Notes: a model not told the origin generated them from the letters alone. Shown: positions 29,950 to 51,679, counted from the first letter of the stretch. The stretch is 64,000 bases of DNA from Amphiscolops sp. MND2022 (GCA_964187785.1 OZ076414.1:58218001-58282000), one strand, 5' to 3'. Made by a program: numbers and translations.

Positions 29950-30475
29950 CCATCAGGTGCAATTACACCTGACAATAACAGTTGTCCTTAAAACTATCAA
30001 CCCTAATTCACTCAATTATTATCAGACCTGATCAGATTCAACCCCAATTCAATTCGCAATCGAAACAAGACAGTGATGGTGAATGCACACAGGAAAAGAG
30101 TTGACCTCATATGACTAAAGTGGAACCGGAACAGAATGAAACAACTTCATGTATATGAGACCGTAATGGCTCAATCTGAGTGCATGTCGAAAGCCGCTGC
30201 CACTTCCTCTTACTACTTACATTACTTTGACATTTGTTTACTTAGCGCACGACCGGATGGCGCGGCAAGAGCTATATAACAGCTCATACTGCCTCTCGGA
30301 TATATGTACAAAGCCATCACATTTCATCCCTCTTTTCCGATACTCAATTCAAGCTCTAAGCCAGTGATCTAACTCGTCAACCACAGTATCCTCTAGTCGT
30401 TAACTACCAAAAACAGCTAAAGTATTCTCAGTTTCCAATAAACTGACCGGTAGTACAACCACTGGTGACAACTCA
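29950..30475 (+). mobile_element. Probable LTR fragment of another element with PBS-like TGGTGACA
   Basis: TATATAA near 30275, AATAAA near 30438, then ...TACAACCA C TGGTGACAAC. No partner LTR in the window. Confidence 0.3.
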
Positions 30476-30699
30476 AACATTCAGTCGCCACTTTCACGAA
30501 GTCTAGTTCTAGCTGGTGACCAATCAGCATCTCTGCAGCAGTTCACGACAGTCACGAATATAGACCAAGCAGTTACATGGCCTGATTCAACACCTGAAGA
30601 GCAACAGCCTGCCTCGCCGCCACCGTTTCATCACTTTTCCAAACAGGCGGAGTGTCATGCCGAACAGTTTGATTTGATTTAATAACGACTTCACCTTTC

Positions 30700-32332
30700 A
30701 GTTGTGTCGCAGCCTGTCGCCTGATGATCCGCAAAGGAACTGATTTTTGCCCACAAGTTCCGGAGGACTTACTGGTCTCCTTGAGTGTGGGTGAATTCGC
30801 CAACTAGGCAAAGCTGTCCTAGCTCGCGTTTCAGGGGTAATGAGGGGAGTCGTTCAGCCCCGGAAGAAGTCGTCGTAAAACGGGAAGCGCTCTCCTATGT
30901 CGACTAGCTCTGATTGAATGAACTTTGGCAACTCCCTAGCTAGCTCGATCTTTGTCAACACGTTCCCGTTGCGGCCTCTAACCCGGTGTTGTACTTTGCC
31001 ACTCACTGGATCTACACTTCTGAGATGTTTGTTCCTCCAACGCTGGATCTCGCCTCAGGTGCTTCTCCGTTCGGTGGTGTCGAAGGATCTCGAGGGTGTC
31101 GACCTTTGGTCTTGATCGAGAAATTCTTCTTACACACATGTCACCAGACTGTGTGGTTTGTGAATCGGGTCAGCGGGACCAGAAATGAAGGATATCGTCC
31201 AACCAATCTTGGCGAAGAACTCTTCAAGCATGGGGCCCCTCGTTGGGGCTGTCGTTTGGGCTTCTGAGGCTCCTTGGCATGAGCTTTGCGCTTGGACTTC
31301 CCACGCAGAGATTGTTCTCTGACTTCTGACAGAGTAACATCCTGGCTACTTCGGTCAGTTTCCAGGCTTCCCAAGTATTTATCCCCTGCTGATGTTGTGG
31401 CATTTGTCGTGGAGGGGCCTCCTTTATTGGTAGTCTTTAACGATACTGTTATCAAGGCCATCTCTCCAGAGATATCGCTCTCTCCGAAAAATGAGGAATC
31501 GCCTGATTCTCCTTTGTGGGTAACCTCCTGATCGTCACACTCTGAGGACGTAAATGTCTCACTCTCTACATCACTGGAATCGCTTACAGCTTGCCTGAAA
31601 GGGGTTGAGGCTCGGGCTCTTCTCCGGAAATGCTCGGTGCGAGGTGGTGCTGTGGTATTCCTCTAACCGCATCCAATGCCATTTGTTCCATGGTAGCATG
31701 ACACATCCTTAGAGTTTCGTCTGTTAAGACTCGTAACAGGTGATACATTTGTGGTTCTGTGAAGGCCACAGTTGGATGACCCCGTGGCAGGTTGAAAACT
31801 TTCGTCTCCAGGAAGTACGTCTTATGGACGCCTCGAGTTCTTCCCGACAGTGCCGGCAGCTGGTCTTCTACTCCAATGGAGGTAGATGCAATAAGCCCCC
31901 GTTGAAACAAGGTGTTGGGGCCGGATTCGTCTACAGCTGCAGCTCCTGATTCAGTTGCACTAGGGAAGCTCCCGTACAACGAAAGGCTTCCCATGTTGCT
32001 CGCTTCCTCAACTGTTTTTTCTCCTTCACTCAGGTCAGCTAGGAACAGGACTTAAGGTTCGTTGTTGGGCAGTGCAGGCACTTCATAGACGGACGACTCG
32101 TTGTCGTCCTCAGACTGGGGGATAATTGTGACAATGCCCCCATGATCCTCCCTTGAAGTCGACAATGGCTCAGGCAGTTGCGAATCAGAAGCGGTGGCGA
32201 TCCTTAAAGCTGATTTCAAAGCAGTCAAACTTGTATTGGACGCTCCCTCCTCATCAATTGGAATAGCGGTGCTTGCGCCTCTGGGTACTGAGGACAGATG
32301 ATCTTGTTGGGCTTCGGTAGTTCCGATATCAA
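30700..32332 (-). pseudogene. Antisense cargo gene of element C (part distal to the B insertion), decayed
   Basis: Frameshift-corrected translation gives FISGPADP..HVCKKNFSIKTKG..EILRHHRTEKHLRRDQRWR..DPVSGK..VRGRNG..ELVDIGERFPFYDDF..VLRNLW. This aligns with the A cargo FVSGPVDP..CQICKANISSYSKG..EILRHHSTEKRLRKDQRWR..ELVDIGEKLLFYDEY..VLRNFW. Confidence 0.8.
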
Positions 32333-32687
32333 TGTGTTGACCGTGATTCGGGAGTAAATCACTTGGTTCAACTAGTCTATACCTATATTCCGTGTTTTCA
32401 GCATCCTCGTCGTCGGGACCATGACGCACGTTGTTAGACGGTCTCTCTGTCAGTGTATCGATTTTAGAAGTCAGGTTCTCTATCATCTTCAGAATTTCGC
32501 GCTGTCCGACTTCCGCGTCTTTGATTCTTTTACTTACAGATTTTTCTATCTTTTCAGATAATTCCGTAAAATCCTTATCAGACAAACTAGCAGCGTTTTC
32601 AGTTCTCATGCTAGAAGATTCAGGTTCGTCTAAAGAGTTCACAGGAGAATCCCTTCTGGCTTTTCTTTTGGAGCTACGTTCTGGCAT
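32052..32687 (-). CDS. Chimeric read-out ORF: 118 gag-leader codons of the 3' LTR fused to flanking DNA (211 aa from the first ATG)
   Basis: Near-identical (one substitution) to the Gag N-terminus up to HGQH, then IDIGTTEAQQ... from the target site. Confidence 0.5.
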   Translation of the reverse strand: MPERSSKRKARRDSPVNSLDEPESSSMRTENAASLSDKDFTELSEKIEKSVSKRIKDAEVGQREILKMIENLTSKIDTLTERPSNNVRHGPDDEDAENTEYRYRLVEPSDLLPNHGQHIDIGTTEAQQDHLSSVPRGASTAIPIDEEGASNTSLTALKSALRIATASDSQLPEPLSTSREDHGGIVTIIPQSEDDNESSVYEVPALPNNEP

Positions 32688-34243
32688 CTTACTTAAGGCT
32701 TGATAATTCTCGATTTTCTTTTTGAGGAAATTAGAGCAAGTTCTCAAGTGACAAAGTGCGACGTTTCAAGATTTTTAATTATCGTTAAACGAAAGATAAT
32801 TGTTTCGCAAAATAACAAAATTCAACTAAAAAATGGCTTCTAGCTCGCATTGTATTTATACTTTTCATCCCGGAAATCGGGGAAAAGACACGAACATACT
32901 TCACATTTTGTTCAGTCCGGCGTCCGTCCGAGGCAAGGAAACAGGAAGTTCAGTTCCGCTTTGTCGAACTCAGGCTTTCAGCTTGTTCATGCTTTCCGAA
33001 GAAAAGCACGCGTCCACTTCCGGCCTGAGTTGCGACTCCGCTTCCCTTCGCCTCCAATTTCCCGCCTCTTCAGGACGCCGAACTGAAAAAATTATCAACG
33101 GCACGCGCAATGAGTCACTGAATAAGATTGATTAACTGCACAAATTTGGGAAAAAATGATGACAACCAATTTTTCTTTACAAATATTTCCCTAAATTAAA
33201 TAAATCAGCAAAGTTTGAATGAAATTTAACACAGATTACACATTAGGCTTCAAATGAAAGAGTAGAATTGCTTCTACAGTATTTGTAGCTCTGATTTTGG
33301 TTAATAACACAAAGCCTGGTCCCAGGCCATAGTCCGGGACGGACAAACATGTTCAGTGGGTAAAGCAACTATTAATTATAAACAGCATCAGATATATTGT
33401 TCGGAAAGGTATTTAATGCAATTGAACGACAACAGATTCAGGGAACAGGGTATGCATGTTATTAACACTTGGTTTAATATTCGGTACTAAATCTTTGGTT
33501 CAGGCCGCGGTTCAGGCCTGTTTATAGATTAATCAACATTTACATGTAAAAGAACGTTATATGTAATATTTTAAACTACAATATAGTTTAAGATCATAGA
33601 TAATAATCTCTGGCTTCATTTTGAGACAAAGTTACGTGGTAGCATCATCATCTTTCACTTTCGTGATTGATTTATCGTAATTAATTCTCAGGCCGCATCC
33701 CAGGCCGCGGTACGTGATGTTCTATTAAGTTAGCACAGTAATCTCAATTGTTGGTATATTTGCATTCGTATTGTTAATAAATCACTGCACTAGACATTAG
33801 TTCATTTACATGTATTCACTATAGCGCGCGCTTGCATATTAATCCGCTGAGGTTGCAATTCTCAGGCTGCCTGCCAGGCCGCCGCTTCAGTGCGAGTATT
33901 TGAGGCCGGCTGCCAGGCCTCAGTTCCGCCTTCGATTTCTCAGTTCATTCACTGAGCGGTGCGATTCGATAATTATTATTACATAGTATTGTATTATTAT
34001 TAACTGCACAAATAGCTCCGTTATTCCGTAAGTACGTATTTATATAAGTGTACAATATTATGATAATAATACTAATATGCATATATATTATTAATTTAAC
34101 TTCAAATTTATATTGTTTAGCTCCTTTGTTTCTGATTGTTTGTCCGCTGTCTATTTCCTCTTCTTTTGTTCTTTTTCCAATTTATTCTTCGAAGACTGGG
34201 TTGTGTTTGTTGCAATACTCGCAGCTCAGTCGGGGCTGTGACA
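32333..34243 (-). repeat. 3' LTR of element B (1911 bp)
   Basis: Direct repeat of 46023-47934 with 7 substitutions and 1 indel by manual comparison. Starts TGTCACAG and ends CAACACA on the minus strand. Confidence 0.97.
33311..33919. promoter_or_regulatory. Array of paired CAGGCC motifs with 12-bp period in the U3 of element B (mirrored at about 47002-47610)
   Basis: Pairs start at 33501/33513, 33689/33701, 33863/33875 and 33902/33914, with a degenerate pair at 33311/33323. Confidence 0.7.
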
Positions 34244-34766
34244 GTCCTCGGCTTCTGTACCCAATTCCCTCAGGAAGAAGAAATTGGGAAATCGATCGAA
34301 TCGGGGTCTCAAATAGCGTTGGGAGATCGTCAGTTGATGAATTGTAGGATCGCCAAGATGAGTCTGTCTCCCAATCACTTCCCGAATAGTAGCCTTCTGA
34401 GCTACTGTAGAAACTTATCGGGCTATCAACGTTGTAGTCGGGATCATCGTAAATTTCACGGTCGAATTGCCTGACCGGACTCATAAATGTGTCTTCGGGG
34501 ATCACTGGGTTGTCTTGCGTGAAACGTCTGATGACTCCCATCTCGTTTTCTGTGTTCGTAGTATCGGCCGGCGTTTCTTCATGTACTAGGACTACGTGGT
34601 AGTCCTGTGTTTTAACGATTTCGTTAGTAATGTTAATTTGCCGCGTGGTAATTAGGTTATAATCTGGTGGCGGTGTACCGGCTCTTTGTTCGGGCTGCTG
34701 CTGTTGATCTCGTTCGAGAATGAAGACGTCTTCGTCCATTTTGCTGTTTGAATTGGGATGATTCAT
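34182..34766 (-). CDS. Sense acidic accessory ORF of element B (194 aa), crossing the PPT region into the 3' LTR
   Basis: Intact ATG ORF, D/E/S-rich with SDWETDSSW and a C-terminal CEYC. Its last 62 nt lie in the LTR. TATATAA on the minus strand at 34890-34896. Confidence 0.65.
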   Translation of the reverse strand: MNHPNSNSKMDEDVFILERDQQQQPEQRAGTPPPDYNLITTRQINITNEIVKTQDYHVVLVHEETPADTTNTENEMGVIRRFTQDNPVIPEDTFMSPVRQFDREIYDDPDYNVDSPISFYSSSEGYYSGSDWETDSSWRSYNSSTDDLPTLFETPIRSISQFLLPEGIGYRSRGLSQPRLSCEYCNKHNPVFEE

Positions 34767-34985
34767 TGTAGTAGTAAACTAAGCGTCAGTCGATTTTTAG
34801 TACAACTGATTTGCTTCGCTTGGAAAATTTGTTCACACGGTTTGTGTCAACTCCATGAATTGTTCAGCTGGCAGACTGAACAACTCTCCTTATATAGTAG
34901 ATAACTTTTAGTAATAATATTTCCATTGATTTTACGCCACATCTTTTTATTTTTTTCATGGTTTGTTATTTTCAGACAATTGATT
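34767..34985. promoter_or_regulatory. Candidate internal bidirectional promoter between the sense ORF and the antisense cargo gene
   Basis: 219 bp between divergent ATGs. TATA element at 34890-34897. Splice acceptor TTTTCAG at 34975, just before the cargo ATG. Confidence 0.5.
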
Positions 34986-37900
34986 ATGTGTTCTACTGAG
35001 GAAGATAGTGCATTGTTGCACCGCAGTCGAGAAGCAGAGTTAGTGGAGAGTGGAGCAGAAGTTGAGTCTGTGGTTGAGTCGGTTGTCCGAGGAGAGGAAA
35101 AAACTAGTGGATGTGGGGGTGATGATGAAAATGAAGACGCGAGTAGAGGCGGCGTTCAGGAGGAAGCTGGTGTGTCTGTTGAGCGAGCAGAGGGACATGT
35201 GCCAGGCTTTGGGGACAGAGCAAATTCCAGTGATGACAGCAGTGGAGAGCATGAGAGTGTTATTGCAACTGGGTCTTTCCATTCTGCCACAAGTGATGAT
35301 GGGCATGGCATTGATTACTCGGCACGGAAGAAAGGTAATCTTTTCTAGAAATTAATAGGTGGCCAGCCTTTTCTAGGTTTTTTGAACGCGTTCTATTCAT
35401 CTACTTTCTGTAGCTACCGATGATGGATCTGATGAGGATTATGCCCCGATCCGTAGCACGAGGTCCCAAGGGAAGAAGAAGACAAGGGCCAGTCGAATGT
35501 TGTCAACTACCAGTGTGCAGTCTGCGAAACGGGTTCGGTTGGCGGATGTCATTTCTGGTTCGATTGCCAGGCCGCCCTCTGTTCATGACAGTTCGGGACA
35601 TGACCATGAGCCCCCCATGATTTCTGCTTCTCGGACTCTTGAAAGTAGGTATTCTTTCTCTTTCTCTTTCTAGGGGTGTCAAGTACAATGAAATGGGTTC
35701 GTGTATCGCTTGTAGGGACACTTGTTCTGCATTTCCTGTTGTTCATACTTTGGTTGTATTATAGTTGCTGGAGCAGTGCCTGGGCCGGGATATGAGTCTT
35801 CCGAGGACAGTGATGTATTTGTGTGTGAGGTGGCGGGTGATACTCCTGCCCCTGTCAGTGATGCTGTCTCGGAGCTACCCGGTGTGTCGTCCAAGCGTGG
35901 CAGGACTCAGCACGGACGAGTCGCTGTTGGGGTGGAGGCTTCAGTTGTGTATAATGACTGGGAAAATGGTACGTTGAATTTTCATTTCCATTCCTCTCTT
36001 TATGCTCTCTTCGTGTTGTGTACTTTTGCTCATCGTGCGGTTTAGCGTCAAATATAGGGTTGTGAAACTTGCTTGTTTGTTGTTAGCTGGTCTGGATGCA
36101 GTTCCTCCTGATTCGCCAATGATGATGTCCGCGGCGCAATGTGTGTTACTGGCCCGAAGTGCTGCCCGAGCAGAGCGGACTGAGTCTCTTAAAGAAACTA
36201 AAAGCCTGTCTAAGCGTAAGTGTATTGTTGTTGTTCTGTTGTTTGGCTTTCTTGACTTCTTCGGTGGTTTCTTTTGGGTTGTTTTGGTTGCTTCTATCTC
36301 TTGGATGTTTATATTAAGTGTTGTTGTATGCTGTCATTTGTTTGACTACTTGTTGTTGTGTTTAGAATTTGAGGAGTTGCCTCGGCTCTTGAAAGGGAAA
36401 GGCATTGACGCTGATAACCCTGGACGAGTGCTGGATCCTCTAGAGGCGAAGAAGGCGAGACTGTTGGCTCGGGATGAAGAACGGTCAAAACGTCAGACGG
36501 AGCGTCATGTGTTGACAAAAGCCATGAGTGACCATGCGATTCCCCGGTTGTTTGTTAGTCGACGGGATGACAAGAGTCCGAATGGGTTCAACTGTTCAAT
36601 TTGCATGAAAGATGTTTCCTTTCTGTCTCGGGGTGCACGAGGCATCTGGCGGCATTTCAAGTGCAAGGGTCACTACCTCAAGGATCGTCGGTACCGTTAC
36701 GATCACGAGGATGTTATTTATACGGAGAAGTTTGATCCCATGCGAGTTGCTGACCTGAGTGCTGAACAACGCGCCGAGATTGAGGAAACTCCGCCTGTGG
36801 TATTGGGGCGGATGAATAAATTTCTGGAAGACGAAGTGGACGCACTGGTTGGCGCCCCATCCAATGTGCCCCCAACGACTCTTGTGGGATGTTTGTTGAA
36901 ACTGTTGAAGAGTGGAGGGTCCCAATTGTTCTTGCGTCGGCTGTGGAACCAGTTCCGGACTACTTTGCCAGTCGATAGTCCATACGCTTCAGTTACTTGG
37001 AGTAAGACGGAAACATTAGCGGTCCTTGTGCAGACTCTCTATCCTCGTGTTCTTCGTCGTGTGAAGTCATGGCTTGGGGACGGCCCGTTTAGCTTGGCGC
37101 TGCAGTCTTCATACTCCGGTGTGAAGTGTATCGTCCGATGCTGCCCCGATGACTGTCTCCGCGAGGTGCACCTCTTTGAAGAGCCTCATGGTGAAACATC
37201 CTGTGAGGCTGAGATGCGGTGTCTAGCACGAGTTCTGTCCCTTGTGTCGACTATTCGTGGACCTGCTTCAATTTTGAACTGCCCGCCTGTTCTAGTTAAT
37301 GGGTATATCGACTGGTGTCAGACCGTTGGTCGTCCTGTGCCTGTTGTTGCTATGGCTTTCGATCCCGATATGTTGCGACGTCTGATCAATGAGTCCAGTA
37401 TTGTGTGTGTGTGGGGTCTGTGGATCCGTTCTCAGCTCTGGAGTATTTGGTTCAGCGTCTCAAGCGGGTGCGTCATCAGGCGTGGTTATTAAATCTGCCT
37501 CAATTGCGTCTATGTTTGGAAACCGGAGTCGTGCCCTTTGCGTCTTTGTGTGGGATTCTGCGGGAACTTCTGGATAATTGGGCTGACGTGAAGCTGTGCT
37601 TATCGAACAATGTGCTATTGATGAAGAAGTCAGCGAATGTTGTGGATCTAGATTCTCTTCTGTGTGCTGATCGTCTGGTCTTGCCGCGCTTTGCCTTTTT
37701 GCACGTTGTGTTGCTGTGCTACAATTCAAATTCAGGAGGCAGCAGGATCCGAAAGTTCGGGATTACGCGTGTCGCAATTTTACTGACTTTTGCTTTTTTT
37801 ACTGGAGTCTTTTGGGCAAGGTGAAGAAAGTTAGTCAGTTGCCGTCGGTGGATAATTGGTTTGAGTACATTGATCAGCCTCTGACCAATTGGGCGAATGT

Positions 37901-38830
37901 TACCGCTGGGGAGTGTTTGCAGTCCGAGCCCAGCATCATGACGGCGTTGCGCGGTTTTGATGACGCTCCTCGCCGCACCTTCCTGCGTGAGTGTCAGGGG
38001 TCCTTGCTTGAGTTGTTGAAACGGCTTGGATCGTCAACTTATTGTACTTCGCGTGTAGCCCGTTCGCTCAGCTGTTTGAGTGTAGATATGCTGCTGTGTG
38101 GAGATGCTGAGTATGTGGTAGATTTGTTTCAAGATCTGGTGAGCTGTTTACGTGATGCTAGCTTTCTGAGTGGAGTTGACCGGGAGGCCTCTGTAAATGA
38201 GTTCAAGTCTCTGGTTGTAGACCTGCCTCAACGGTCTTCTGATCCTGAACAAATTTGTGATGTGTTCGGATTTTTGGAAGCTAGTGATGTTTATCAGTGC
38301 CGGGGCTACGTTAAACAAGTGGTTCGTCTGTTGCGAGTGATGGTGTGTTCTGGGCCAAATGCCATGCTCCTGTGGATATTTCAAGTAGTGGAGTTGGTCT
38401 TCCTACAGCTGTTATCCGTTCAGGGATCAGTGCAGTGCAGTCGTTTGTTCTCCATCCCAAGTTTGTCTCGAATGATTTACTGACCGTGGAGTGTTTGGAG
38501 GAATTAAAGGTGAATCTGCCTGTGGGGCATCAGTTCTTGGCGCGCACCTCTTTCGATCCGTTCGTGGATATCAGTCGTCATGCTTGGACGGAGGTTTTTG
38601 AGAGTTTGTTTCGCTGTTACACCGCCTACTACACTGTTCAGGTTGAGGGATGGAGGGCTCGGATGGCTGGTGGGCGATCATCCCGTGGTGTGCCGTCTCG
38701 TACTACGTCTGCTGCTGAGACTGTCTCTGTGGTTGAGGCGTCCGAGCCAGTGCAGGCCTCTACGAGTTCGTCGGCACAAAAGAAGAGAGCGGTGTCGAAG
38801 AAAGGATCTCGCCAAGAGAAGTCTTGTTAA
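34986..38830 (+). CDS. Antisense spliced cargo gene of element B: join(34986-35334, 35414-35644, 35765-35968, 36087-36215, 36366-38830), about 1,125 codons; BED-like zinc finger plus hAT-transposase-like core; three frameshifts in the last exon
   Basis: Four phase-1 GT-AG introns of 79, 120, 118 and 150 nt (donors GTAATC, GTAGGT, GTACGT, GTAAGT) splice into one frame. CSIC-x16-H-x5-H at about 36590-36673. GPFSLALQSS..VKCIVRC at 37082-37140. Frameshifts near 37405 ((TG)n run), 37720 and 38365. Confidence 0.8.
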
Positions 38831-39157
38831 GTTTTTTGAAACTTTACGTTGATGAACTGCTTTGATTTATTTTCTTTGTTGTTTCTTTTTATTGTGTACT
38901 CATTGTTCTGATATTACAGGGTTCCGCTAGCCGGTTCCGTTGTTAGAGAAGAAAAAAAAACATGCTCTGATATTATGGAGCGGAGAAAAGATTTGAGGCA
39001 GCTCGGTAGTCCACTGGGTCATTCAATTTAGTATTTAGCCTCTGTATTGTTTTCATCCGAGTTGTAGAGTACAGTAGAGTGAGTGAAAGCCATTGTGATT
39101 TGAAGAGATTTGGGGTCAGGTCATAGGATTGTGGTCCAGGCCAGTGCCTGGGCCTGA

Positions 39158-42100
39158 TTAATTTTCTGATCTCGGACTGCCGTCTGGGCCGAGGTCCGCT
39201 AAAACCTGTAATTCTGGGCCGTTGTCCAGTCCGTCGGAAGAATATGCCAAGTTTGTTGAATTGACTGTTAGGGCATTGTAATAGGCATAATCTGGTTTCC
39301 AATTTGACGTCGGGTTTTTCCGAAGGTTGTAGTGGGATTTCCGGGGGGATTGAGGTGCGGGTGTATGATTTTCGGGTTCATCATCGATATCGGTTAGTGG
39401 GTCCTGTGTCTGGTCACTTGGGTGGTTAGGAATGATTTCGGGGTCGTATATTAGGTTAGGACTTGGGGGGTCGGGGTGGGTGGGTTCATCGATTGTTTCT
39501 GGGGTTGGTTGGATCACTTCAGGTTCGGGTAATTGTTTGTTTTCGGGTTGGTTAGGGCATTCTTTGTAAAGTCCTTCCCACGCCATTGCGAAGAGGTCGT
39601 CGTGCTGTATGGCTACCTCTGTATCCTGCTGGAAATCCTTGGGTGGGACTGTATTGTCGGGCAGCTTGTGACTGCTTGCGAAGGGGCGTAGCCTGATTCT
39701 GTGCAGGATCTGTGTGAAATTGGTTTGGAGTTTGCGTATCAGATAGTTGTTGTTGGGTAGGGTTTTGACCACGGTATATGGTCCCGTCCAAAGGTATTCC
39801 CGAAACGGCAATTTCGTCGCTTGGCTATGCGCCTTTGGATGCAAAGCATAGCAGTAGTCGTTTACTACCAAGGGGTGTGCTGATGCTTTCCGGTCATAAT
39901 AACGCTTATGTCGGACGTAGGCTTGCATCAGGGCTTGTTGGCTCTGGTTGAGGATTTCTTGTGTTTGTTGTAACACTCCCTCAGCTATTTCGTGGTTGGT
40001 TGGGGCAGTGGCCTGGGGTTTAAGACCGTACTTTAGGTCGAGTACGTTGTATGGCACTCTTCCATGGAAAACTCGGCTGGGTTCGCAGCCTAATGAAGTG
40101 TGGTAGGAAGTGTTGTAATTTAATACTGCCATTGGTAAGAATTGGTGCCATATCGTTCGCCTCTCTCCCGTCATGATTTTTAGACTTTCTTTGAGCGAGG
40201 CGTGTGTCCTTTCTAAGATGCCTATCGTCTGGGCATGTTTTGTGGTGGCATGTTTTAGTTGGATTCCGAGAATGGCTGTTGTTTGTTGCATTGCCTCCGA
40301 TATGAACTGGGATCCTTTGTCCGTGATGATCGTTGTTGGGAGATAGCAGTGTCTTGTGATGATGTCGGTAAGGACCCGTGTGACAGTCTTGGTGTCAATT
40401 CTCGCGACGCTATACGCGAATAGGTAACGGGAGAATACATCCATCGCTGTGATGACTGCGGTGTATCCTCCCGAAGAGTCGTCAAAAGGGACGATGTCCA
40501 TTTGTAGCGCGTCTTCTGGACCCATTGCTATTTTGGACATGTCGATGAGCGGGGGTGTGATGTTGGCATTTGGTATCCTTTTCGTCTGGGCGCATTCTGG
40601 GCATTGTGCATTGTGGGTGGCTATTCGGGCGGCTAGCCCCGGGAAGTAGTACTTTTCGCGGCATTGCTGGATGGTTTTAGCTATACCTGGATGTTTCCCG
40701 AATTTGCCGTGGTGGTGTTGTATGAATTCATCAACCAATTGCTGGGGGAGTAGTACTTGCAAGTACTTGACTTTCCCTGTATCGCCAAAATATTGTCGAT
40801 ACAGGAGTCCATCTTTTATGATGATGCGATCATCTTGTGTGAGGTATTTGGCCGCTCTGGGGTCGTCGTTCAGAAGTTGGGTGTCGTACGGTTCTTTTAG
40901 GATTTTCAGTTTGAGGTTTCTGAGGACGGGGTCCTGGTCTTGGTACGGTCTCAGACTGCGCGGGAAGCTTGTGTCACTGTGAAGTTGGCGCCGCTGTTCT
41001 TGCTCTGGGTCTTGGATGTTGTTGCAGACCAAGGGTAGGTTCTCGGGTTGGGAGATGGTTTGGACAGTTTCACTCTTGGGGTCGGAGTTCTGGTCATGGG
41101 GTGTGTAGATCTGTTTCCTGGCTTGTTGTTTACGCTCCCAAATGTCTTCTTCGGTCTCAGTATCGTCCTCTGGTAAAAAATAGAATTGATCTTCTTCATG
41201 GATGTCGGAGGATTGTATGTTTACCTGGATCGGCGTCGTTTGAATGTCTTCTCTGATTTGGAGAAGGACTTTTTCTTTGGGGCTAATGTCTAATCGGGAG
41301 AGGAAATCGGCTGCTGTATTCATCCTTCCCGGCACATGGGCGATTTTAAAGTGAAATTGCAGTACAAAATCGCAGGCATTCCAGAGGGAGGGTGGTATCA
41401 TCTTGGTTTGGTAAAACCTGGTGACTGATTTATTGTCGGTTAAGACAATAGTCGGTTTGGATGAACCCCACAAGATGTGACTATTTTCCATAAAAGCGAA
41501 ATAGATAGCTAAGAATTCTTTGGCATAGATTGACATCTTCAACTGGGATGGTGAAAAAGTTTTAGAGCCAAATGCCACTGGAGCGTAAGTCTTCCTGGTG
41601 GAGGTTATCTTTTGCTCTGGGTCTTCTTCCGTCATCAAGGCATATCCGGCATTCCTGAAGCTTGCGTCTGTCATTAGTACGTACTGCCGGTTTGGCAGTG
41701 GCTGTTTGAGCCAAAGGCCACATGCGTTGTCTAACGATTTGTTGATAGCTTCGAAATTGGATATGAGTTCTTGATCTATCTTGACTGGCTTCTCTGATTT
41801 GATGAGTTCATGAAATGGGGCAATCTTCTCTGATAATCGGGGAATGTAGTTTCTGTAGTAATTTACGAAGCCGATGTATCTTTGAAGTCCCTTCTTCGTC
41901 CGGGGGAATTTGGTGGTCTGAGGGTGTTTCTGGATCGTGTGGCTTTGGGGTGCTACCCCTGCTGGGGAAATTGTTCGCCCAAGGAATTCGACTTCCTTGG
42001 CGCCGAACTGGCATTTGGCCATGGAGAGCCGGAGTCCTGCTGCGCGGATGCATTGGAAAACTTCTCTCAAGTTGTTCTTTAACTCCTCGGGAGTGTTGGT

Positions 42101-44887
42101 GGCGATTCCAATGTCATCCACGTACTGAGCGCATTTGTCCGCCTTTATGGCTTTGTCGAGGTATTCCCTCATGAAACTTGAAAAGGACGACAATGAGCGG
42201 CTCAGGCCTTGGGCTAGCCTGAGGTACGCGAATGTCCTGCTGGCGAAGTTGAATGCTAGCAGTTGAACGGACTTCTGGTCTGCCATTTGCAGCACGTGGT
42301 AGGCTTGTGAACAATCAAGCTTGCAAAACAACTTCTTGCCGGCGAGGTGTTGCGCCGCGTCTGTTAGTGTGCTCACTGGGTGATTGTTGTTAATGTAATC
42401 ATCAGATATCAGGTTGTTGATTTTCCTGAGGTCGACTAGTAGGCGCAGGCGGCCGTTTGGCTTCCTTTGGGCGAAAATGGGGCTGGCGTACTTGCTTGCC
42501 AATTCGACCGTCAGATCTTCTTTCAGGTTAATGGGGCAGGGCAAACTCTGTGAGTAGATGGGGTCGTCTGTTTTCGGTGTGAGTTTGATTTTGAAATCAT
42601 GGTTGGTTCCAATGTCCAGTCGATGTCTTGCAAAGATGTCGTTGAACTCTATGAGTATTTCTTCGATATCTTTCTTGTCATCTTCGGAGAGTTGTGAATC
42701 GTCCCATTTGAAGCTTTGGAGGAATGTTTTTCGTTCCTCTTCGCTGTTGTTGGGGTCGAGTTTCTGGATTTCTTCCAGTTCTTTGATTTCTCGGAGAATT
42801 CGGTTCTGGATTGGGGTATGGGTAGCAGGGTCTCCGCGGTGGTCTGGTGTGGGAAACCAAAAGTTTTGATTGTGAGATGGTTTTTCTGAGGTTTTCAGGA
42901 GCTCGTTGATGTACACCATCGCATCTTCGGAGTCGTCTTCAGCGAGCACTTTGAGTGCTGCTGTGTTGAGTGGTTTGAGTTCTTTTGCCTCTTCGGGGGA
43001 CAGGATTTTGAATTCTGCTATTGTTGTGTTTCGTTTGATGGTATAGGGTGTAGGGGTGGTATTTGTTACTCTGATGTCGATTTTTCGGTTTGAGGCTGTT
43101 GAGATTGAACTGGCTACCACGAGGGGGTCGCCACTGCAGTGGTTGGTGGCTGGGTTGATGACACCGGTTGTGTCGACGTTGGATGGGATATCTGTGGAGC
43201 CTGTTTTTGTTTGTGTCGTTTCAGGGGGGATAGTGAGTGGGTTCTTTATTTGTACTTTGTACAGTTTCCTGTTACGGGTATATTCGTCGGTTTCGATTGA
43301 ATATGTGAGGTGGAGGAAGTGTAGCAAGCCCTGGCTCACGTCCAGGATGGCGCTGTTATTTTTAAGGAACGTGAGGCCAAGAATCGGGCCTGTCAGTCGT
43401 TTGGCCACGATAAAAGTTTCCTTAAAATTCCAGTCTCCGATTTCGAATTGGAGGATGATTGTTTTGGTAGGCGTTTCAATGTCGCCATTTGCGACTTGGA
43501 GTTTGAAAGGGGGTGGTTCCAACTCTTTAACAGTGTCTTTGGGGGACATTTGGAGGATTTTATTGTAATCGGTTTCGGAGATGCAGTTTACAAGGGCGCC
43601 AGAGTCAATAAGGGCGTCCAGGGTCAAGTCCTGGAAGTCCATGGGGGCGGAGAGCATTTTCTTCTTCTTTTTGAGGGATACTGCTGAAAAGATTGGTATG
43701 CACTCTTCTTTTGTTATGGGGTCTCTCGTGAGGTATTCCACAATCTGGGCTAGGGAGTAGGACTGGGGTTCGTCCTGGGGTGGTGTGTCGTTTACAACAC
43801 CGGTGGGGGATCCAGATTGTGTATTAGTTGCGGCAGGGTTGAGGGGTCGAGGGTCCTCGACTTCGTTTTCGGTCTGCCTACTGGAGAGAGAGGTGGGAAC
43901 GTTGATTTCTCTGACTGGACTTTTGTTGTTCCTCTGATATTCTGCAGTCTGCTTAGGGAGGTAGGACTTGGGAACGTCCTGTTGCGGTGTGCCGTTTGCA
44001 GCACCTGATGGGAATTCAGACTGCATGTTGGTTGCGTCAGCTATGATGTGTCGATCGGTGTCGATTTCATCTTCTAGCTGACTATTGAGGATAGTGGGTG
44101 AGAACTGTGTCTCGTGCTGAACGGAGGGTTCTAGGAGAAGAGATCTCTTTATTCGTTTGGTTTTTGGTTTGGAGATGTTGGTCTCTGAATTGGGTGTAGG
44201 TGAGGCCAGGTCCACGGCTTCGATCGTGGTCCTGTCGGTGAGGTTTCTATGTTGGTGGCTGTCTGGTGCCACGTCCATTGTTGGGGATCGTATGATACCG
44301 GCTCTGATAGGGTTTCTTGGCTGATCTTTTGGTGGAGAATGGGGAGCCATGGTATAGGATCCTTGGTTCTTGAGTATAGATTTAACGTTGTTCTGTGAGA
44401 TATCAACTAGGATTTCTGTTACGTGTTCGACGTCCTGGTTGTAGTCTGGGATAGGTTGGACGGTTTTGGAACTGTAGCGTGGCTCGGTGGAGATATTCAT
44501 CCCTGTTTTTCTGATGTACTCTTCAAATGGCGTGCATTCCTGTTGTTTGAACGTTAGAGTCGTCTTGTCATATAGTTGAGGGTTATAGTATGGGTCGCAG
44601 TTGAAGTCAGAGTCGTGGAAGTAGGTTTCAGGGGAAGTGCTTTCTGGTAGGGGTCGTTTAGGAGTATTGTAAGCAGTCGGGTTGTCAAGGTACCACTGAG
44701 GGTAGTCTTTCTTTGCGGTGTTTTGGCGATTATATTTATTGAGTTTGTGAATCTGCCATCTTGGCTGCCAGTCGAGAGATGGTTCTTTATGTCGCTCGGT
44801 GTTCTTTTCGTAGTCATATGAATTTGGGGGTTCGGATGTTGTGTACTGTCGGGTTTCGACAGTCTCCCCAAATCGAAGATGTGGCAT
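39158..44887 (-). CDS. pol: pol of element B (about 430-aa spacer, protease, RT, RNase H, integrase), 1909 codons
   Basis: ALIDSG protease at about aa 428. RT LLVDLRKIN, LAQGLS, QYVDD. RNase H TDAS, KEFLAI, TDNK, ADFLSR. Integrase HH..H..CPEC, MDIV, TDKGSQF, ILERTH. Confidence 0.97.
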   Translation of the reverse strand: MPHLRFGETVETRQYTTSEPPNSYDYEKNTERHKEPSLDWQPRWQIHKLNKYNRQNTAKKDYPQWYLDNPTAYNTPKRPLPESTSPETYFHDSDFNCDPYYNPQLYDKTTLTFKQQECTPFEEYIRKTGMNISTEPRYSSKTVQPIPDYNQDVEHVTEILVDISQNNVKSILKNQGSYTMAPHSPPKDQPRNPIRAGIIRSPTMDVAPDSHQHRNLTDRTTIEAVDLASPTPNSETNISKPKTKRIKRSLLLEPSVQHETQFSPTILNSQLEDEIDTDRHIIADATNMQSEFPSGAANGTPQQDVPKSYLPKQTAEYQRNNKSPVREINVPTSLSSRQTENEVEDPRPLNPAATNTQSGSPTGVVNDTPPQDEPQSYSLAQIVEYLTRDPITKEECIPIFSAVSLKKKKKMLSAPMDFQDLTLDALIDSGALVNCISETDYNKILQMSPKDTVKELEPPPFKLQVANGDIETPTKTIILQFEIGDWNFKETFIVAKRLTGPILGLTFLKNNSAILDVSQGLLHFLHLTYSIETDEYTRNRKLYKVQIKNPLTIPPETTQTKTGSTDIPSNVDTTGVINPATNHCSGDPLVVASSISTASNRKIDIRVTNTTPTPYTIKRNTTIAEFKILSPEEAKELKPLNTAALKVLAEDDSEDAMVYINELLKTSEKPSHNQNFWFPTPDHRGDPATHTPIQNRILREIKELEEIQKLDPNNSEEERKTFLQSFKWDDSQLSEDDKKDIEEILIEFNDIFARHRLDIGTNHDFKIKLTPKTDDPIYSQSLPCPINLKEDLTVELASKYASPIFAQRKPNGRLRLLVDLRKINNLISDDYINNNHPVSTLTDAAQHLAGKKLFCKLDCSQAYHVLQMADQKSVQLLAFNFASRTFAYLRLAQGLSRSLSSFSSFMREYLDKAIKADKCAQYVDDIGIATNTPEELKNNLREVFQCIRAAGLRLSMAKCQFGAKEVEFLGRTISPAGVAPQSHTIQKHPQTTKFPRTKKGLQRYIGFVNYYRNYIPRLSEKIAPFHELIKSEKPVKIDQELISNFEAINKSLDNACGLWLKQPLPNRQYVLMTDASFRNAGYALMTEEDPEQKITSTRKTYAPVAFGSKTFSPSQLKMSIYAKEFLAIYFAFMENSHILWGSSKPTIVLTDNKSVTRFYQTKMIPPSLWNACDFVLQFHFKIAHVPGRMNTAADFLSRLDISPKEKVLLQIREDIQTTPIQVNIQSSDIHEEDQFYFLPEDDTETEEDIWERKQQARKQIYTPHDQNSDPKSETVQTISQPENLPLVCNNIQDPEQEQRRQLHSDTSFPRSLRPYQDQDPVLRNLKLKILKEPYDTQLLNDDPRAAKYLTQDDRIIIKDGLLYRQYFGDTGKVKYLQVLLPQQLVDEFIQHHHGKFGKHPGIAKTIQQCREKYYFPGLAARIATHNAQCPECAQTKRIPNANITPPLIDMSKIAMGPEDALQMDIVPFDDSSGGYTAVITAMDVFSRYLFAYSVARIDTKTVTRVLTDIITRHCYLPTTIITDKGSQFISEAMQQTTAILGIQLKHATTKHAQTIGILERTHASLKESLKIMTGERRTIWHQFLPMAVLNYNTSYHTSLGCEPSRVFHGRVPYNVLDLKYGLKPQATAPTNHEIAEGVLQQTQEILNQSQQALMQAYVRHKRYYDRKASAHPLVVNDYCYALHPKAHSQATKLPFREYLWTGPYTVVKTLPNNNYLIRKLQTNFTQILHRIRLRPFASSHKLPDNTVPPKDFQQDTEVAIQHDDLFAMAWEGLYKECPNQPENKQLPEPEVIQPTPETIDEPTHPDPPSPNLIYDPEIIPNHPSDQTQDPLTDIDDEPENHTPAPQSPRKSHYNLRKNPTSNWKPDYAYYNALTVNSTNLAYSSDGLDNGPELQVLADLGPDGSPRSEN

Positions 44888-44899
44888 ATTTAGTTTTTT
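44800..44899 (-). promoter_or_regulatory. -1 ribosomal frameshift signal at the gag-pol junction
   Basis: TCA AAA AAC TAA gives the heptamer A_AAA_AAC (44899-44893) in the gag frame, and pol is in the -1 frame. Downstream hairpin ACTGTCG-AAACC-CGACAGT is flanked by ATTTGGGG/CCCCAAAT. Confidence 0.8.
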
Positions 44900-46377
44900 G
44901 ATTGGCTGAACTCGTGGGTTTGGTTTTGGGGTTGAGTGGTCTGCGGGAGCATGGGTTGGTAGCCCGTTTGGCTATTTGTTTGGTTGTTATATGGCTGCTG
45001 ATGTACTGGTGTATTGTCTGGAGGGTACTGACCTTGTGTATTCTGTGGCAGCGGGATGTTATTCGGTGAAGTTGCTTTAGGGGTCTTCCACCATTGGGGT
45101 CTGTTTGCCCAGTTGGCGCCAGAATAACATTCCTGTGTCGTATGGCTCTTTTTGCCGCAGGTTTCACATGGGTTTGTTATTTTAGTCGGTGCCCTGTTGC
45201 CTCGGTTGCGGGCTTCTCGAGCAGTTGTCCGGCAGTTCTTTATTACATGTCCTGGGCTGCCACATCCGAAACACGGGCCTGCTGGTTTGGGTGGATTGGC
45301 GGTTTGTTGTGGGACATCTTGTACATCGATTTGGTGTACTCCCGTTATGTTTGTTTCGCTTGGGGCCAGGAGTCCGTTTAACTCCATCTCGCGTTCCAGG
45401 TGTTGGACCATCAGTTCGTACGACTCTGTCTCGAGTCTTGCCTGGTTAAGGACTCGTTTTAAGTGCGCTGGCATTTTTGCATAGAATGAGGTTTCTATGA
45501 ACTTTGGGGCGTCGTCGCCATATGCCTCCTGTGCCAATTTCTGGTATTGCTCCAGGAAGTCTTGGAAGGTTTGGCGAGTCGGGTCAAAGTAAAGCTGTTC
45601 CCACTTACATCTTGCGGTGGCTATAGATTGTGGGCGAACGTATCGTCTTCGGAATGTGGTAATGATGTCGTCTAAACTGGCGCGGTTTGCGTCTGTCATA
45701 TTGCGATACGTCTGTAGGGCATCGCCTCTCAGGAGGGAGTGGAAGTAGTGAATTTGCTCTTCCTCTGAGATGTTTGGATATACTTTCAGGCTAGTCATAA
45801 ACAGGTCCTCGAAAGGCTCGAATTTGTCATTGCGGCCATCAAATGTGGGCATGGTTGTTGAGAGTGCCTTTGGGAGTCTGGGCAGTCCCGCGCTCTGTTG
45901 TGTGGCATTCTTCAGGGATTCGAGCAGTTTGTCCACGATATCGTCTGGATATCTCATGTTGGGCGGGGGTAGGCTGGATGATCGGGTGGGTATGTCCTGG
46001 GTTGTGGTAACTCCTGTCACCATGTGTTGACCGTGATTCGGGAGTAAATCACTTGGTTCAACTAGTCTATACCTATATTCCGTGTTTTCAGCATCCTCGT
46101 CGTCGGGACCATGACGCACGTTGTTAGACGGTCTCTCTGTCAGTGTATCGATTTTAGAAGTCAGGTTCTCTATCATCTTCAGAATTTCGCGCTGTCCGAC
46201 TTCCGCGTCTTTGATTCTTTTACTTACAGATTTTTCTATCTTTTCAGATATTTCCGTAAAATCCTTATCAGACAAACTAGCAGCGTTTTCAGTTCTCATG
46301 CTAGAAGATTCAGGTTCGTCTAAAGAGTTCACAGGAGAATCCCTTCTGGCTTTTCTTTTGGAGCTACGTTCTGGCAT
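44890..46377 (-). CDS. gag: gag of element B (first ATG 46377; open frame from 46437), capsid-like core and two CCHC knuckles
   Basis: MPTFDG..FEDLF..LLRGDAL capsid-type region; CFGCGSPGHVIKNC and CETCGKKSHTTQEC. Confidence 0.95.
   Translation of the reverse strand: MPERSSKRKARRDSPVNSLDEPESSSMRTENAASLSDKDFTEISEKIEKSVSKRIKDAEVGQREILKMIENLTSKIDTLTERPSNNVRHGPDDEDAENTEYRYRLVEPSDLLPNHGQHMVTGVTTTQDIPTRSSSLPPPNMRYPDDIVDKLLESLKNATQQSAGLPRLPKALSTTMPTFDGRNDKFEPFEDLFMTSLKVYPNISEEEQIHYFHSLLRGDALQTYRNMTDANRASLDDIITTFRRRYVRPQSIATARCKWEQLYFDPTRQTFQDFLEQYQKLAQEAYGDDAPKFIETSFYAKMPAHLKRVLNQARLETESYELMVQHLEREMELNGLLAPSETNITGVHQIDVQDVPQQTANPPKPAGPCFGCGSPGHVIKNCRTTAREARNRGNRAPTKITNPCETCGKKSHTTQECYSGANWANRPQWWKTPKATSPNNIPLPQNTQGQYPPDNTPVHQQPYNNQTNSQTGYQPMLPQTTQPQNQTHEFSQSKN
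46010..46022 (-). other. Primer binding site TGGTGACAGGAGT (tRNA-Leu-like), read as M-V-T-G within gag
   Basis: Directly abuts the 5' LTR end. Matches 12 of 13 nt of the complement of the metazoan tRNA-Leu(CAG) 3' end as I recall it (TGGTGTCAGGAGT). Confidence 0.75.
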
Positions 46378-47934
46378 CTTACTTAAGGCTTGATAATTCT
46401 CGATTTTCTTTTTGAGGAAATTAGAGCAAGTTCTCAAGTGACAAAGTGCGACGTTTCAAGATTTTTAATTATCGTTAAACGAAAGATAATTGTTTCGCAA
46501 AATAACAAAATTCAACTAAAAAATGGCTTCTAGCTCGCATTGTATTTATACTTTTCATCCCGGAAATCGGGGAAAAGACACGAACATACTTCACATTTTG
46601 TTCAGTCCGGCGTCCGTCCGAGGCAAGGAAACAGGAAGTTCAGTTCCGCTTTGTCGAACTCAGGCTTTCAGCTTGTTCATGCTTTCCGAAGAAAAGCACG
46701 CGTCCACTTCCGGCCTGAGTTGCGACTCCGCTTCCCTTCGCCTCCAATTTCCCGCCTCTTCAGGACGCCGAACTGAAAAAATTATCAACGGCACGCGCAA
46801 TGAGTCACTGAATAAGATTGATTAACTGCACAAATTTAGGAAAAAATGATGACAACCAATTTTTCTTTACAAATATTTCCCTAAATTAAACAAATCAGCA
46901 ACAGTTTGAATGAAATTTAACACAGATTACACATTAGGCTTCAAATGAAAGAGTAGAATTGCTTCTACAGTATTTGTAGCTCTGATTTTGGTTAATAACA
47001 CAAAGCCTGGTCCCAGGCCATAGTCCGGGACGGACAAACATGTTCAGTGGGTGAAGCAACTATTAATTATAAACAGCATCAGATATATTGTTCGGAAAGG
47101 TATTTAATGCAATTGAACGACAACAGATTCAGGAAACAGGGTATGCATGTTATTAACACTTGGTTTAATATTCGGTACTAAATCTTTAGTTCAGGCCGCG
47201 GTTCAGGCCTGTTTATAGATTAATCAACATTTACATGTAAAAGAACGTTATATGTAATATTTTAAACTACAATATAGTTTAAGATCATAGATAATAATCT
47301 CTGGCTTCATTTTGAGACAAAGTTACGTGGTAGCATCATCATCTTTCACTTTCGTGATTGATTTATCGTAATTAATTCTCAGGCCGCATCCCAGGCCGCG
47401 GTACGTGATGTTCTATTAAGTTAGCACAGTAATCTCAATTGTTGGTATATTTGCATTCGTATTGTTAATAAATCACTGCACTAGACATTAGTTCATTTAC
47501 ATGTATTCACTATAGCGCGCGCTTGCATATTAATCCGCTGAGGTTGCAATTCTCAGGCTGCCTGCCAGGCCGCCGCTTCAGTGCGAGTATTTGAGGCCGG
47601 CTGCCAGGCCTCAGTTCCGCCTTCGATTTCTCAGTTCATTCACTGAGCGGTGCGATTCGATTATTATTATTACATAGTATTGTATTATTATTAACTGCAC
47701 AAATAGCTCCGTTATTCCGTAAGTACGTATTTATATAAGTGTACAATATTATGATAATAATACTAATATGCATATATATTATTAATTTAACTTCAAATTT
47801 ATATTGTTTAGCTCCTTTGTTTCTGATTGTTTGTCCGCTGTCTATTTCCTCTTCTTTTGTTCTTTTTCCAATTTATTCTTCGAAGACTGGGTTGTGTTTG
47901 TTGCAATACTCGCAGCTCAGTCGGGGCTGTGACA
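46023..47934 (-). repeat. 5' LTR of element B (1912 bp) with TATAAATA at 46543-46550
   Basis: Direct repeat of 32333-34243. TATA is followed about 25 nt later by GCCATTTT, then by ATTAAA as a candidate polyA signal. The gag ATG lies inside the LTR. Confidence 0.97.
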
Positions 47935-47939
47935 ATCAA

Positions 47940-48250: not shown

Positions 48251-49215
48251 GGAAGTACTTTGAAAATTTGATTGAAACGTGTTATCACGTGTTCAGTGAT
48301 GGAAAGAGGAAGCGTTTTGTGAACGAAATTTAGCCTTGATCAAGGTATATTAGTTCAAAATATTAAATCCAGACCAACCTGAGCTTGAAGACATTTCGCT
48401 GAAGTGGAGAAGATTGGCCGGGGTCGGCTGAAGAGGGAAGAAGATTCGGAATACTCCAGAAAGATGAAGTCAGCAACAAAGTTGAAGACGGAAGTGGACA
48501 ATTGAAGTAATCAGGAATACAAATGATAAAAGAATTCAAAAAATAATGGAATTGGAATAAACAATGATCAAGATTTGAAAATTGGAGTTCGTGGCTGTTG
48601 AAGTTTACCAGATTAATGTTTTATGATTATTTACAAATTTAAAACTGTGCATGGAGTCTGCCAGTGAAGTGTACAGACGATTCTTCACTGTTTACAACAT
48701 TTTTTAAGTTAGAAGGCCTTTTTGGCCGTTTACCCTGTTCCGTTGCTCTTATTACCATTTAGTTAAAAATTCGGCCAATTTGAAATATTTCAAATTACTA
48801 TTTGTTGCCATTTTGTGATTCCTTTTTCTATTTTATCGAAGATCGATTTTAATTGGCTCTCATAAAAAGAGAAATGTGTGACGCGTGCCGTTCATTGCCT
48901 TCAAGCGATCCGTTAATTACCCACTTGAGACGAGTGTATTTGATATGACCAAGTTAAGCGCTGTTCACACCTTTTCTGATGACGGGAGTGATGAGGGGTA
49001 ACCACCGAAAAATCAAAGGTCGCCGACAGCTGGCGGAGTTCCTTTCAAGAAAGTTTACGCCGAGTTAGGACAATTGATCGAATTGAGCCGAGTCGGAAAT
49101 CTCCGGGGAAAGGCCTAATTGGGCTTGGGGCAGAGATATAAACAATATAATTCCTCTCAGAAATAAAACACTGACTAGTTGCCCTTACCGGCTCAAAATT
49201 GCGAAAAACCCCATA

Positions 49216-51602: not shown

Positions 51603-51679
51603 AGTCGTTCGGAAACCTCAACTTGGAGTAGTTCATGAAGTTTTTAGAAGAAAACCACCGGCCTAACCAGACAACACAA

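Follow-up and report, generated by a model that had tools for sequence, protein, structure and literature searches.

Sequence-specific self-activation is established for plant DNA transposons through the VANC and TnpA systems, and our literature searches turned up no account of it in an LTR retrotransposon or with a hAT-derived protein. VANDAL elements, which are Mutator-like DNA transposons of Arabidopsis, encode the accessory protein VANC and repeat a short family-specific motif, a single 8-9-mer, in their noncoding regions; motif and protein both differ by family, and the motifs can accumulate by tandem repeats (PMC5735166). Binding by VANC is proven, and its output is DNA demethylation (PMC5735166). 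TnpA of Spm/CACTA elements and other self-activating transposases provide a second precedent, in which the regulator is transposase-derived, loss of catalytic residues serves as a route to a transcription factor, and motif classes mirror element phylogeny (bioRxiv 10.64898/2026.08.24.746577). Regulators of the TnpA type stay in their own DNA-transposon superfamily or are domesticated by the host, and the words LTR and retrotransposon are absent from the main text of that report (bioRxiv 10.64898/2026.08.24.746577).

Three further systems bear on the locus described here. A hAT transposase acts as a multimer spanning two DNA ends. In Hermes, residues S66, N67 and R70 touch bases of the repeats, and binding of a quasi-palindromic pair by two fingers is cooperative and exactly phased (PMC10368747). 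The plant element Retand (Tat), of the Ty3/gypsy type, has a conserved antisense ORF, TRP28, between pol and the 3′ LTR, predicted to encode a DNA-binding protein with a proposed regulatory role, and also carries family-specific repeats (PMC11963269). Finally, foamy virus Tas and HTLV-1 Tax/HBZ are retroelement-encoded regulators that act on their own LTR, but they come from vertebrate retroviruses and are unrelated to DNA transposases. Tax acts at 21-bp repeats, which it binds through host CREB.

We analyzed a 64,000-nucleotide stretch of DNA (the window) from a 1.07-Gb assembly of Amphiscolops sp. MND2022. One LTR retrotransposon in it, element B, resembles VANDAL elements in having an accessory protein of its own (the cargo) and a short motif repeated in noncoding regions, both of them family-specific, and a CACTA-like carrier of a related cargo holds tandem arrays of its motif. 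It differs from them in that the element is an LTR retrotransposon, the motifs are spaced dyads, binding is predicted, and the genome gives little sign of DNA demethylation. With TnpA it shares a transposase-derived candidate regulator and motif classes that parallel phylogeny, but here a protein with a hAT fold resides in an LTR retrotransposon. As in systems of the VANC/TnpA type, the motif shows enrichment within its own family and occurs only rarely in sister families, and motif classes follow the divergence of element and protein. The best fold match of the cargo is nonetheless hAT, and its likeness to VANC and TnpA lies in a proposed mode of working and not in demonstrated membership of either family. 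The cargo shares with Hermes the overall fold and an N-terminal CCHH finger, and the phasing of paired Hermes fingers offers a model for the dyads (PMC10368747); it differs in sequence (about 10% identity), in having no inverted ends to cut, in its half-site and in a finger unmatched to BED. Compared with Retand, the antisense protein is a different one, the Retand repeats are tandem arrays in the internal region, and the available text of that report matches no target site to the protein (PMC11963269).

In a literature search, thin on subscription journals, we found no LTR retrotransposon described as having a hAT-derived regulator together with matching sites in its LTR. For the antisense accessory ORFs of gypsy elements a target has long been lacking; the present genome alone offers five candidate protein-site pairs that are directly testable.

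Results

Organization of element B

Element B is a young Ty3/gypsy-type LTR retrotransposon on the minus strand of the window. Its two LTRs are 99.5% identical, a 5-bp target duplication (ATCAA; 32328-32332 and 47935-47939) bounds the element, and a primer-binding site beginning with TGG follows the 5′ LTR at about 46022-46011. The principal features are these:

46023..47934, minus strand: 5′ LTR of element B, with an identical set of five pairs (47002, 47192, 47380, 47554 and 47593)
44890..46455, minus strand: gag, which begins within the 5′ LTR and runs through the primer-binding site
39158..44971, minus strand: pol (protease, RT, RNase H, integrase), with Pfam matches RVT_1, RT_RNaseH, rve and Integrase_H2C2
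about 34905..38830, plus strand: antisense cargo gene, between pol and the 3′ LTR
34182..34778, minus strand: ORF3, small, acidic and in sense orientation, 198 codons from stop to stop, overlapping the LTR start; an alternative candidate regulator
32333..34243, minus strand: 3′ LTR of element B, 1911 bp with TG...CA ends on the minus strand, holding the inferred U3, R and U5 and the gag start
32774..32860, minus strand: inferred core promoter and poly(A) signal

The domain order of pol, protease-RT-RNase H-integrase (Pfam positions 446-538, 836-1001, 1070-1202 and 1409-1577), is that of Ty3/gypsy elements; relative to locus L093, there is a 13-codon in-frame deletion close to the RT start. The gag ATG in the 3′ LTR is at 32687. 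Homologues of ORF3 in clade I, the sister of family B, are 34-44% identical, and ORF3 had no match in a Pfam search. The long cargo exon of the window copy is broken over four frames (35978-37492, 37393-37824, 37671-38483 and 38315-38830), unlike that of many relatives, in which a single frame of 816-860 codons is found.

The proposed core promoter comprises a TATA box (TATAAATA, 32860-32853), an initiator-like TTAGTT (32829-32824) and an ATTAAA (32779-32774), and a TATA box is also present at the matching place in the LTRs of families I, A and E. From the positions of these three words, transcription is predicted to start near 32827, which places the paired sites described below in an inferred U3, where they would lie about 450-1060 bp upstream of the start and TATA box. 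Within a promoter block conserved in B and I (33010-33070, minus strand) are CCGGAAGTG and GGCGGGAAA, which we take to be ETS-like and E2F-like words, respectively. The word TTTACATGTA occurs twice in U3 (33538-33548 and 33805-33815), the second copy being kept in all four aligned subfamilies, and is a candidate host-factor site. Between ORF3 and the cargo gene, which are read from the minus and plus strands, TATA-like words overlap on both strands at 34880-34910; this arrangement suggests a bidirectional internal promoter. Element B interrupts another element (30050-32332 and from 47935), in which we find a short LTR-like start, a broken A-like cargo and, at ~30463, a primer site; no gag or pol adjoins it within the window.

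Paired sites in the LTRs and at the pol/cargo junction

Element B carries the following paired sites in its 3′ LTR and where the 3′ ends of pol and cargo converge (no strand is assigned to the pairs):

33311..33328: site 1, degenerate, AAAGCC-N6-CAGGCC, a near-perfect dyad
33501..33518: site 2, GGCC-N8-GGCC
33689..33706: site 3, GGCC-N8-GGCC
33863..33880: site 4, GGCT-N8-GGCC, 39 bp from site 5
33902..33919: site 5, GGCC-N8-GGCC
39137..39232: junction cluster at the converging 3′ ends of pol and cargo, with a full pair (39137/39149) and degenerate pairs (39175/39187 and 39217/39229)

An earlier inspection of the window (the sequence-only reading) had described four (C/G)AGGC(C/T)-N6-CAGGCC pairs at 33501, 33689, 33863 and 33902, and these coordinates are right; the degenerate pair at 33311/33323 and the further pair at 39137/39149 that it listed are both present. 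Strict pairs recur only in the second LTR (47192, 47380, 47554 and 47593) and nowhere else in the 64 kb. The proposed 12-bp period stands, but CAGGCC does not hold as the unit. The bases ahead of GGCC vary (CA, TG, TA, GA, CG), and what is conserved is RGCY-N8-RGCY, which fits either a dyad or a direct repeat of YYYRGGCCR at 12 bp.

Comparison with shuffled LTRs, a check that the sequence-only reading had called for, supports the spacing: AGGC-N8-AGGC occurs four times in the LTR, whereas 1000 dinucleotide shuffles gave a mean of 0.022 and a maximum of 1. When any GC-rich 4-mer at any spacing of 6-40 was allowed, none of 300 shuffles yielded four pairs, and a second, post-hoc-corrected test likewise gave 0 of 100. 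The pairs had also been judged not to be a simple tandem duplication, with which we agree. Their spacers differ and the ~190-bp stretches between them are mutually dissimilar (alignment scores within 2 SD of shuffles), which argues against recent tandem duplication.

Conservation among copies of family B

If the pairs are functional sites, their spacing was expected to persist among copies of the family, and the 12-bp spacing is preserved both in 30 close copies of the LTR and in 20 diverged loci. The best 30 LTR loci, which are 93-100% identical, include the window's two and contain one that is cut at site 5, have zero indels in the pairs; the sole common core change among them is GGCC to GGCT. 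Genome searches with cargo sequences gave about 7,000-11,000 first-look candidates. The diverged loci are 20 among the 140 matches listed, with cargo 75-97% identical to that of the window. All 20 hold 3-5 pairs at steps of about 170-220 bp, together with the 39-bp doublet, and in eight of them the pairs are still present, free of indels, even though most of U3 is unalignable by blastn. An alignment of four subfamilies has invariant columns at 37 of 40 core positions, as against 16 of 40 in the spacers and 203 of 736 in the rest of U3. The pol/cargo junction of B loci holds one to three pairs, and four loci (L032, L042, L048 and L050) have full pairs where the window junction has the degenerate 39175/39187 and 39217/39229. 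Judged by these sequence comparisons, the paired GGCC sites are non-random, conserved, family-specific cis-elements of element B.

Cargo and LTR subtypes are mixed within family B (L031-L050) and within family I (L071-L090); L039, for example, has an LTR about 98% like the window's but a cargo only 78% like it. No B/I mosaics were found among these 40 loci, the absence of which could reflect similarity-dependent recombination.

Different dyads in related families

The search for family-specific paired motifs in relatives, also called for by the sequence-only reading, was positive, with each of five families having a dyad of its own. Each dyad is matched to a different helix in the zinc finger of the cargo, as the suggested co-divergence of finger and site would have it:

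Family B: RGCY-N8-RGCY; finger helix G-P/A-R-G-I-W-R-H
Family I: GHCY at 12 bp; finger helix G-E/A-P/L/A-E-I-W/Y-R-H
Family A: GAC-N5-GTC; finger helix G-A-R-E-I-L-R-H
Family D: GGCC-N6-GGCC; finger helix G-P-Y-E-I-L-R-H
Family E: GACA at 11 bp; finger helix G-A-A-E-V-K-R-H

Elements A and C of the window had been said to show no such pairs, which is correct for the B motif only, since both carry other dyads. Element A (7981-10242, also 47-1997, 2855 and 3814), whose cargo is homologous to that of B but has a different finger, contains nine GAC-N5-GTC dyads in the LTR region and six in pol, and also has them at the junction. Element C (48989-55916) consists of LTR-like units of about 3.8 kb arranged in tandem, with an ORF3 and a gag start, in which D-type GGCC-N6-GGCY pairs occur at 49112, 50577, 52905, 54089 and 54370. 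In the A sample (20 loci among the 150 matches listed), B pairs are absent from all 20, and GAC-N5-GTC is present, often as three half-sites at an 8-bp period. Clade I (20 loci, cargo about 55-61% identical to B) retains the 12-bp period with the core changed to G[ATC]C[CT]; our first pattern for this clade missed 7 of the 20 loci and was widened after inspection. The second base of half-sites in 12-bp pairs is G in 186 of 224 in B versus 8 of 198 in I. The D sample consists of 12 loci among the 139 matches listed.

A cross-table of B, I, A and D, in which the loci used for counting had also served to tune the motif patterns, gives mean pairs per locus, observed and shuffled, of 4.6 and 0.14 for B, 4.55 and 0.15 for I, 8.15 and 0.38 for A, and 4.42 and 0.20 for D; the E pattern was defined and counted separately. 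Counts exceed all 100 shuffles in 20/20 B, 19/20 I, 20/20 A and 11/12 D loci, and motifs foreign to a family occur at 0-0.75 per locus in the table. Two checks reduce the bias that this tuning introduces. With an untuned half-site, G.C[CT], the period spectrum peaks at 12 in B and also in I, at 8 in A and at 10 in D. In a post-hoc-corrected test of the best dyad in single loci, B passes (3/3 loci at 0/100 shuffles), as do A (2/2), D (0 and 1/100) and E (1/100), and clade I is weak, with 20, 4 and 100 of 100 shuffles equalling its single loci. Because the loci of any one family share ancestry, the data amount to about five independent family-level observations.

The dyads of family A extend into coding sequence. 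Relative to synonymous-codon shuffles, GAC-N5-GTC is enriched about five-fold in A gag/pol (8/8 loci; 8-20 observed versus 1.3-3.9; 0/300 shuffles), as expected of a mark on the whole element. The corresponding enrichment in B is weak, with 5 versus 1.6 in the window and 1, 1, 3 and 1 versus about 1 at four other loci, and it is absent in I (8 loci) and in D (6 of the 12 loci).

The antisense cargo and its zinc finger

None of the Pfam families passes for 16 cargo proteins, BED included. A model of the relative P0001 (mean pLDDT 68.8) retrieved Hermes at all of ranks 1-10 in Foldseek, with probabilities of 0.99-1.0 and E values of 1e-3 to 2e-2, none reaching 0.001. In a wide fold search the model aligned with Hermes over 410 residues (Z 11.6, rmsd 5.4), and the next match had Z 6.0. 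The predicted structure of the cargo is thus a hAT-transposase fold, Hermes-like with a helical insertion in the RNase H core. The genomic setting is not hAT-like, which would entail terminal inverted repeats and an 8-bp duplication; cargo genes lie in LTR elements with a 5-bp duplication and in CACTA-like elements with a 2-bp duplication. At the end of the first core strand, where the first catalytic Asp is inferred to fall, the cargo alignment has Q, H, R or K and no acidic residue, so that this Asp appears to be replaced relative to Hermes. The second candidate Asp, its position likewise putative, is unconserved. The cargo appears to have lost a transposase's part in cutting. A homodimer prediction for cargo residues 70-480 scored 0.00 and is uninformative either way.

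The N-terminal finger is encoded as follows:

36593..36673, plus strand: cargo zinc finger CxxC...H-x5-H, with helix G-A/P-R-G-I-W-R-H in family B

Among 60 sequences the ligands C29, C32 and H55 are invariant and H49 is near-invariant, and the model of the finger (pLDDT 93) places a helix at 44-51, before the first histidine. A fold search with the finger found matrin/U1-type fingers as its best matches (Z up to 4.3), BED entries reaching Z 2.0-2.2 or E 5-9, and a sequence search of its profile against solved structures gave nothing significant. The helix is near-constant within each family and different between families. Counting back from the first zinc histidine, whose number in the Hermes BED finger we assume, we infer that the family-varying residues fall on Hermes S66/N67. 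No simple residue-to-base code emerges, since family B has a single motif whether its helix carries A or P.

The fingers belong to a large family, with 609 representatives at E values up to 0.001 and many helix types. The P0049 and P0086 types were not found in this genome at the cut-offs used, and a search of the genome with P0019 returned only ~50% relatives. The size of the family (P0018-P0020, P0032-P0180) and the helix types not found here point to related elements elsewhere, which probably reside in other species.

Family E and candidate proteins for the sites

A quick RT tree has the form ((B,I),(E,(A,D))), in which B, I, A and D are each a single well-supported clade and B and I are about 18% apart. 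Each motif class corresponds to one RT clade and one finger helix. Because motif classes coincide with RT clades, gag, integrase, pol or ORF3 would fit the correlation in the LTR families as well as the cargo does. Among the fetched loci there was no cargo-less element with both LTRs to serve as a control. Only family E appears to separate the cargo from the other element proteins, and this separation is partial.

The E sample comprises 8 loci among the 17 matches listed, of which 6 proved to be non-LTR elements. One of the others, L124 (L124/L144), is an LTR element with gag, pol and an E-type cargo, and L127 is 97% like it. These E LTR elements have 6 and 8 GAC[AG] pairs at 11 bp versus 0.3 in shuffles, located in U3, the gag start, the cargo promoter and the junction; in U3 regions of other families the E motif has 1 match in 72. 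The six remaining loci (L123, L125, L126, L128, L129 and L130; pieces L143-L170) are copies of a multi-copy element of ~34-36 kb. Its ends (L123, L125) are inverted CCCCAG flanked by a 2-bp duplication, AT or TT, and its Pfam matches are DUF1258 above the cut-off (E 8e-10) and Transposase_21 (E 4e-4) and DUF4218 (E 1.5e-3) below it. This carrier of the E cargo is a CACTA/EnSpm-like DNA transposon. Within its ends there is no gag or pol, matches to which occur only outside them, and ORF3 has no match in 32 pieces of the carrier. A SET-domain match in the carrier is weak (E 0.07).

In the CACTA-like carrier, 88-bp repeats in which GAC recurs three times at 11 bp run on for kilobases; of the 154 units counted, 127 have the E pair and 110 the triple. 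E sites and an E cargo thus occur together in an element without gag or pol, which indicates that the site class goes with the cargo gene. The 88-bp unit is about 70% similar to the 3′ flank of the cargo in L124, from which it follows that the site may have hitch-hiked with the gene and then been amplified neutrally. Alternatively, the sites may serve the CACTA element's own proteins. Young arrays retain all bases irrespective of selection.

Discussion

Dyad and DNA-transposase-like protein both differ by family, and hence each family likely makes a private regulator that recognizes its own family. We consider it quite likely that the cargo binds the dyads, in whichever direction regulation then runs. 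That the paired sites are bound by the element's own antisense cargo, and that this keeps the LTR active in the manner of VANC and TnpA, is the reading we favor as moderately likely. Intact copies would supply the cargo in trans, that of the window copy being frameshifted. A cargo multimer would read both half-sites of a pair simultaneously through two zinc fingers, and would occupy the five U3 sites, ~190 bp apart and thus at roughly nucleosome-length steps, plus the junction cluster. Bound cargo would counter host silencing and leave the LTR open and active, much as VANC and TnpA do in plant DNA transposons. CpG is barely depleted in host DNA (o/e 0.92), which makes a VANC-like DNA-demethylation step unlikely; any anti-silencing would instead act on chromatin. 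The sequence-only reading had proposed a dimeric factor, possibly the cargo itself, in a self-regulatory circuit. The conserved spacing, the co-divergence and the hAT fold speak for that proposal, whereas fold searches did not single out BED fingers, to which it had appealed, and the coincidence of cargo and RT clades weakens the attribution to the cargo.

Each family could instead have tuned its U3 to a different dimeric host factor, for example a nuclear-receptor-like protein using GG(T/A/C)C half-sites at differing spacings, with the cargo doing something else. LTR families often recruit differing host factors, the half-sites of all families here are alike (GGCC, GGAC, GWCC), and some host input is certain, with conserved ETS-like and E2F-like words in the proximal promoter. 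We nevertheless find this explanation unlikely, as five to ten orthologous sites would have to switch jointly at every family split. Families B and I, though only about 18% apart in RT, have G versus non-G at one shared position of sites with a common period; in A, coding sequence is filled with A-type sites; and the E site accompanies the cargo gene in a DNA transposon unrelated to the LTR elements. That last observation also bears on a role for another element protein, acidic ORF3, Gag or integrase, binding LTR DNA, cDNA or genomic RNA. The one-to-one match of motif classes with RT clades would suit such a protein, as would the presence of ORF3 in B and I, of a comparable ORF, bearing a CxxC motif, in A and E, and of sites in the U3 copy that is transcribed into genomic RNA. 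Yet the CACTA-like carrier has E sites and no gag, pol or ORF3 match inside its ends, ORF3 belongs to no recognized DNA-binding family, and we know of no case in which integrase or Gag reads internal spaced dyads; a protein of this kind is quite unlikely to be the binder.

The cargo might also bind as a repressor or architectural factor, for copy-number control or for looping U3 to the pol/cargo junction. Family A has a dyad immediately downstream of its TATA box and further ones in the gag start, the cargo gene of B, D and E has a site cluster to either side, and hAT transposases are multimers that join two DNA ends (PMC10368747). On the other hand, the B sites would be 450-1060 bp upstream of the TATA box, and the known transposase-derived, element-encoded site-specific regulators activate their own copies (bioRxiv 10.64898/2026.08.24.746577). 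Because of the VANC and TnpA precedents and the distance of the B sites from the TATA box, activation is moderately preferred, and we hold repression or looping to be rather improbable. It is very improbable that the pairs are structural or incidental, whether as RNA hairpins, antisense splice acceptors or remnants of tandem duplication. GGCC is self-complementary and, of the six window sites, three form 6-bp stems; a pyrimidine run plus AG precedes most first half-sites; and in fold the finger best matches RNA-binding fingers of the matrin type. However, among 44 distinct B sites Watson-Crick pairing is no better than chance (9/44 outside the core, 5/44 inside), the AG is unconserved (TG, GA and CG occur) and lacking from D and I sites, I and E sites are direct repeats unable to pair, and the stretches between sites are mutually unrelated. 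We rejected the hairpin, splice-acceptor and tandem-duplication readings on these pairing counts, the unconserved AG and the unrelated inter-site units, and they are largely refuted for B. Restriction-site, p53, AP-2, COE and ZFX words, using what we take to be their consensus sequences, were dropped as well, none of them fitting the spacing across families.

Returning to binding by the cargo, we tentatively extend it to a portable lock-and-key module, which we hold to be possible but somewhat doubtful. A captured hAT transposase and its dyads would co-diverge (8-, 10-, 11- and 12-bp periods), switch on only the copies of their own family, and have jumped to a CACTA element and formed arrays there. 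If this were true, an animal LTR retrotransposon lineage would have repurposed a hAT transposase, with gene plus site mobile to a CACTA transposon. The five families would then be a natural series in which one transposase scaffold changes both half-site and spacing.

A degenerate 31-bp tandem array is also present in host DNA of the window, at 13341-14252.
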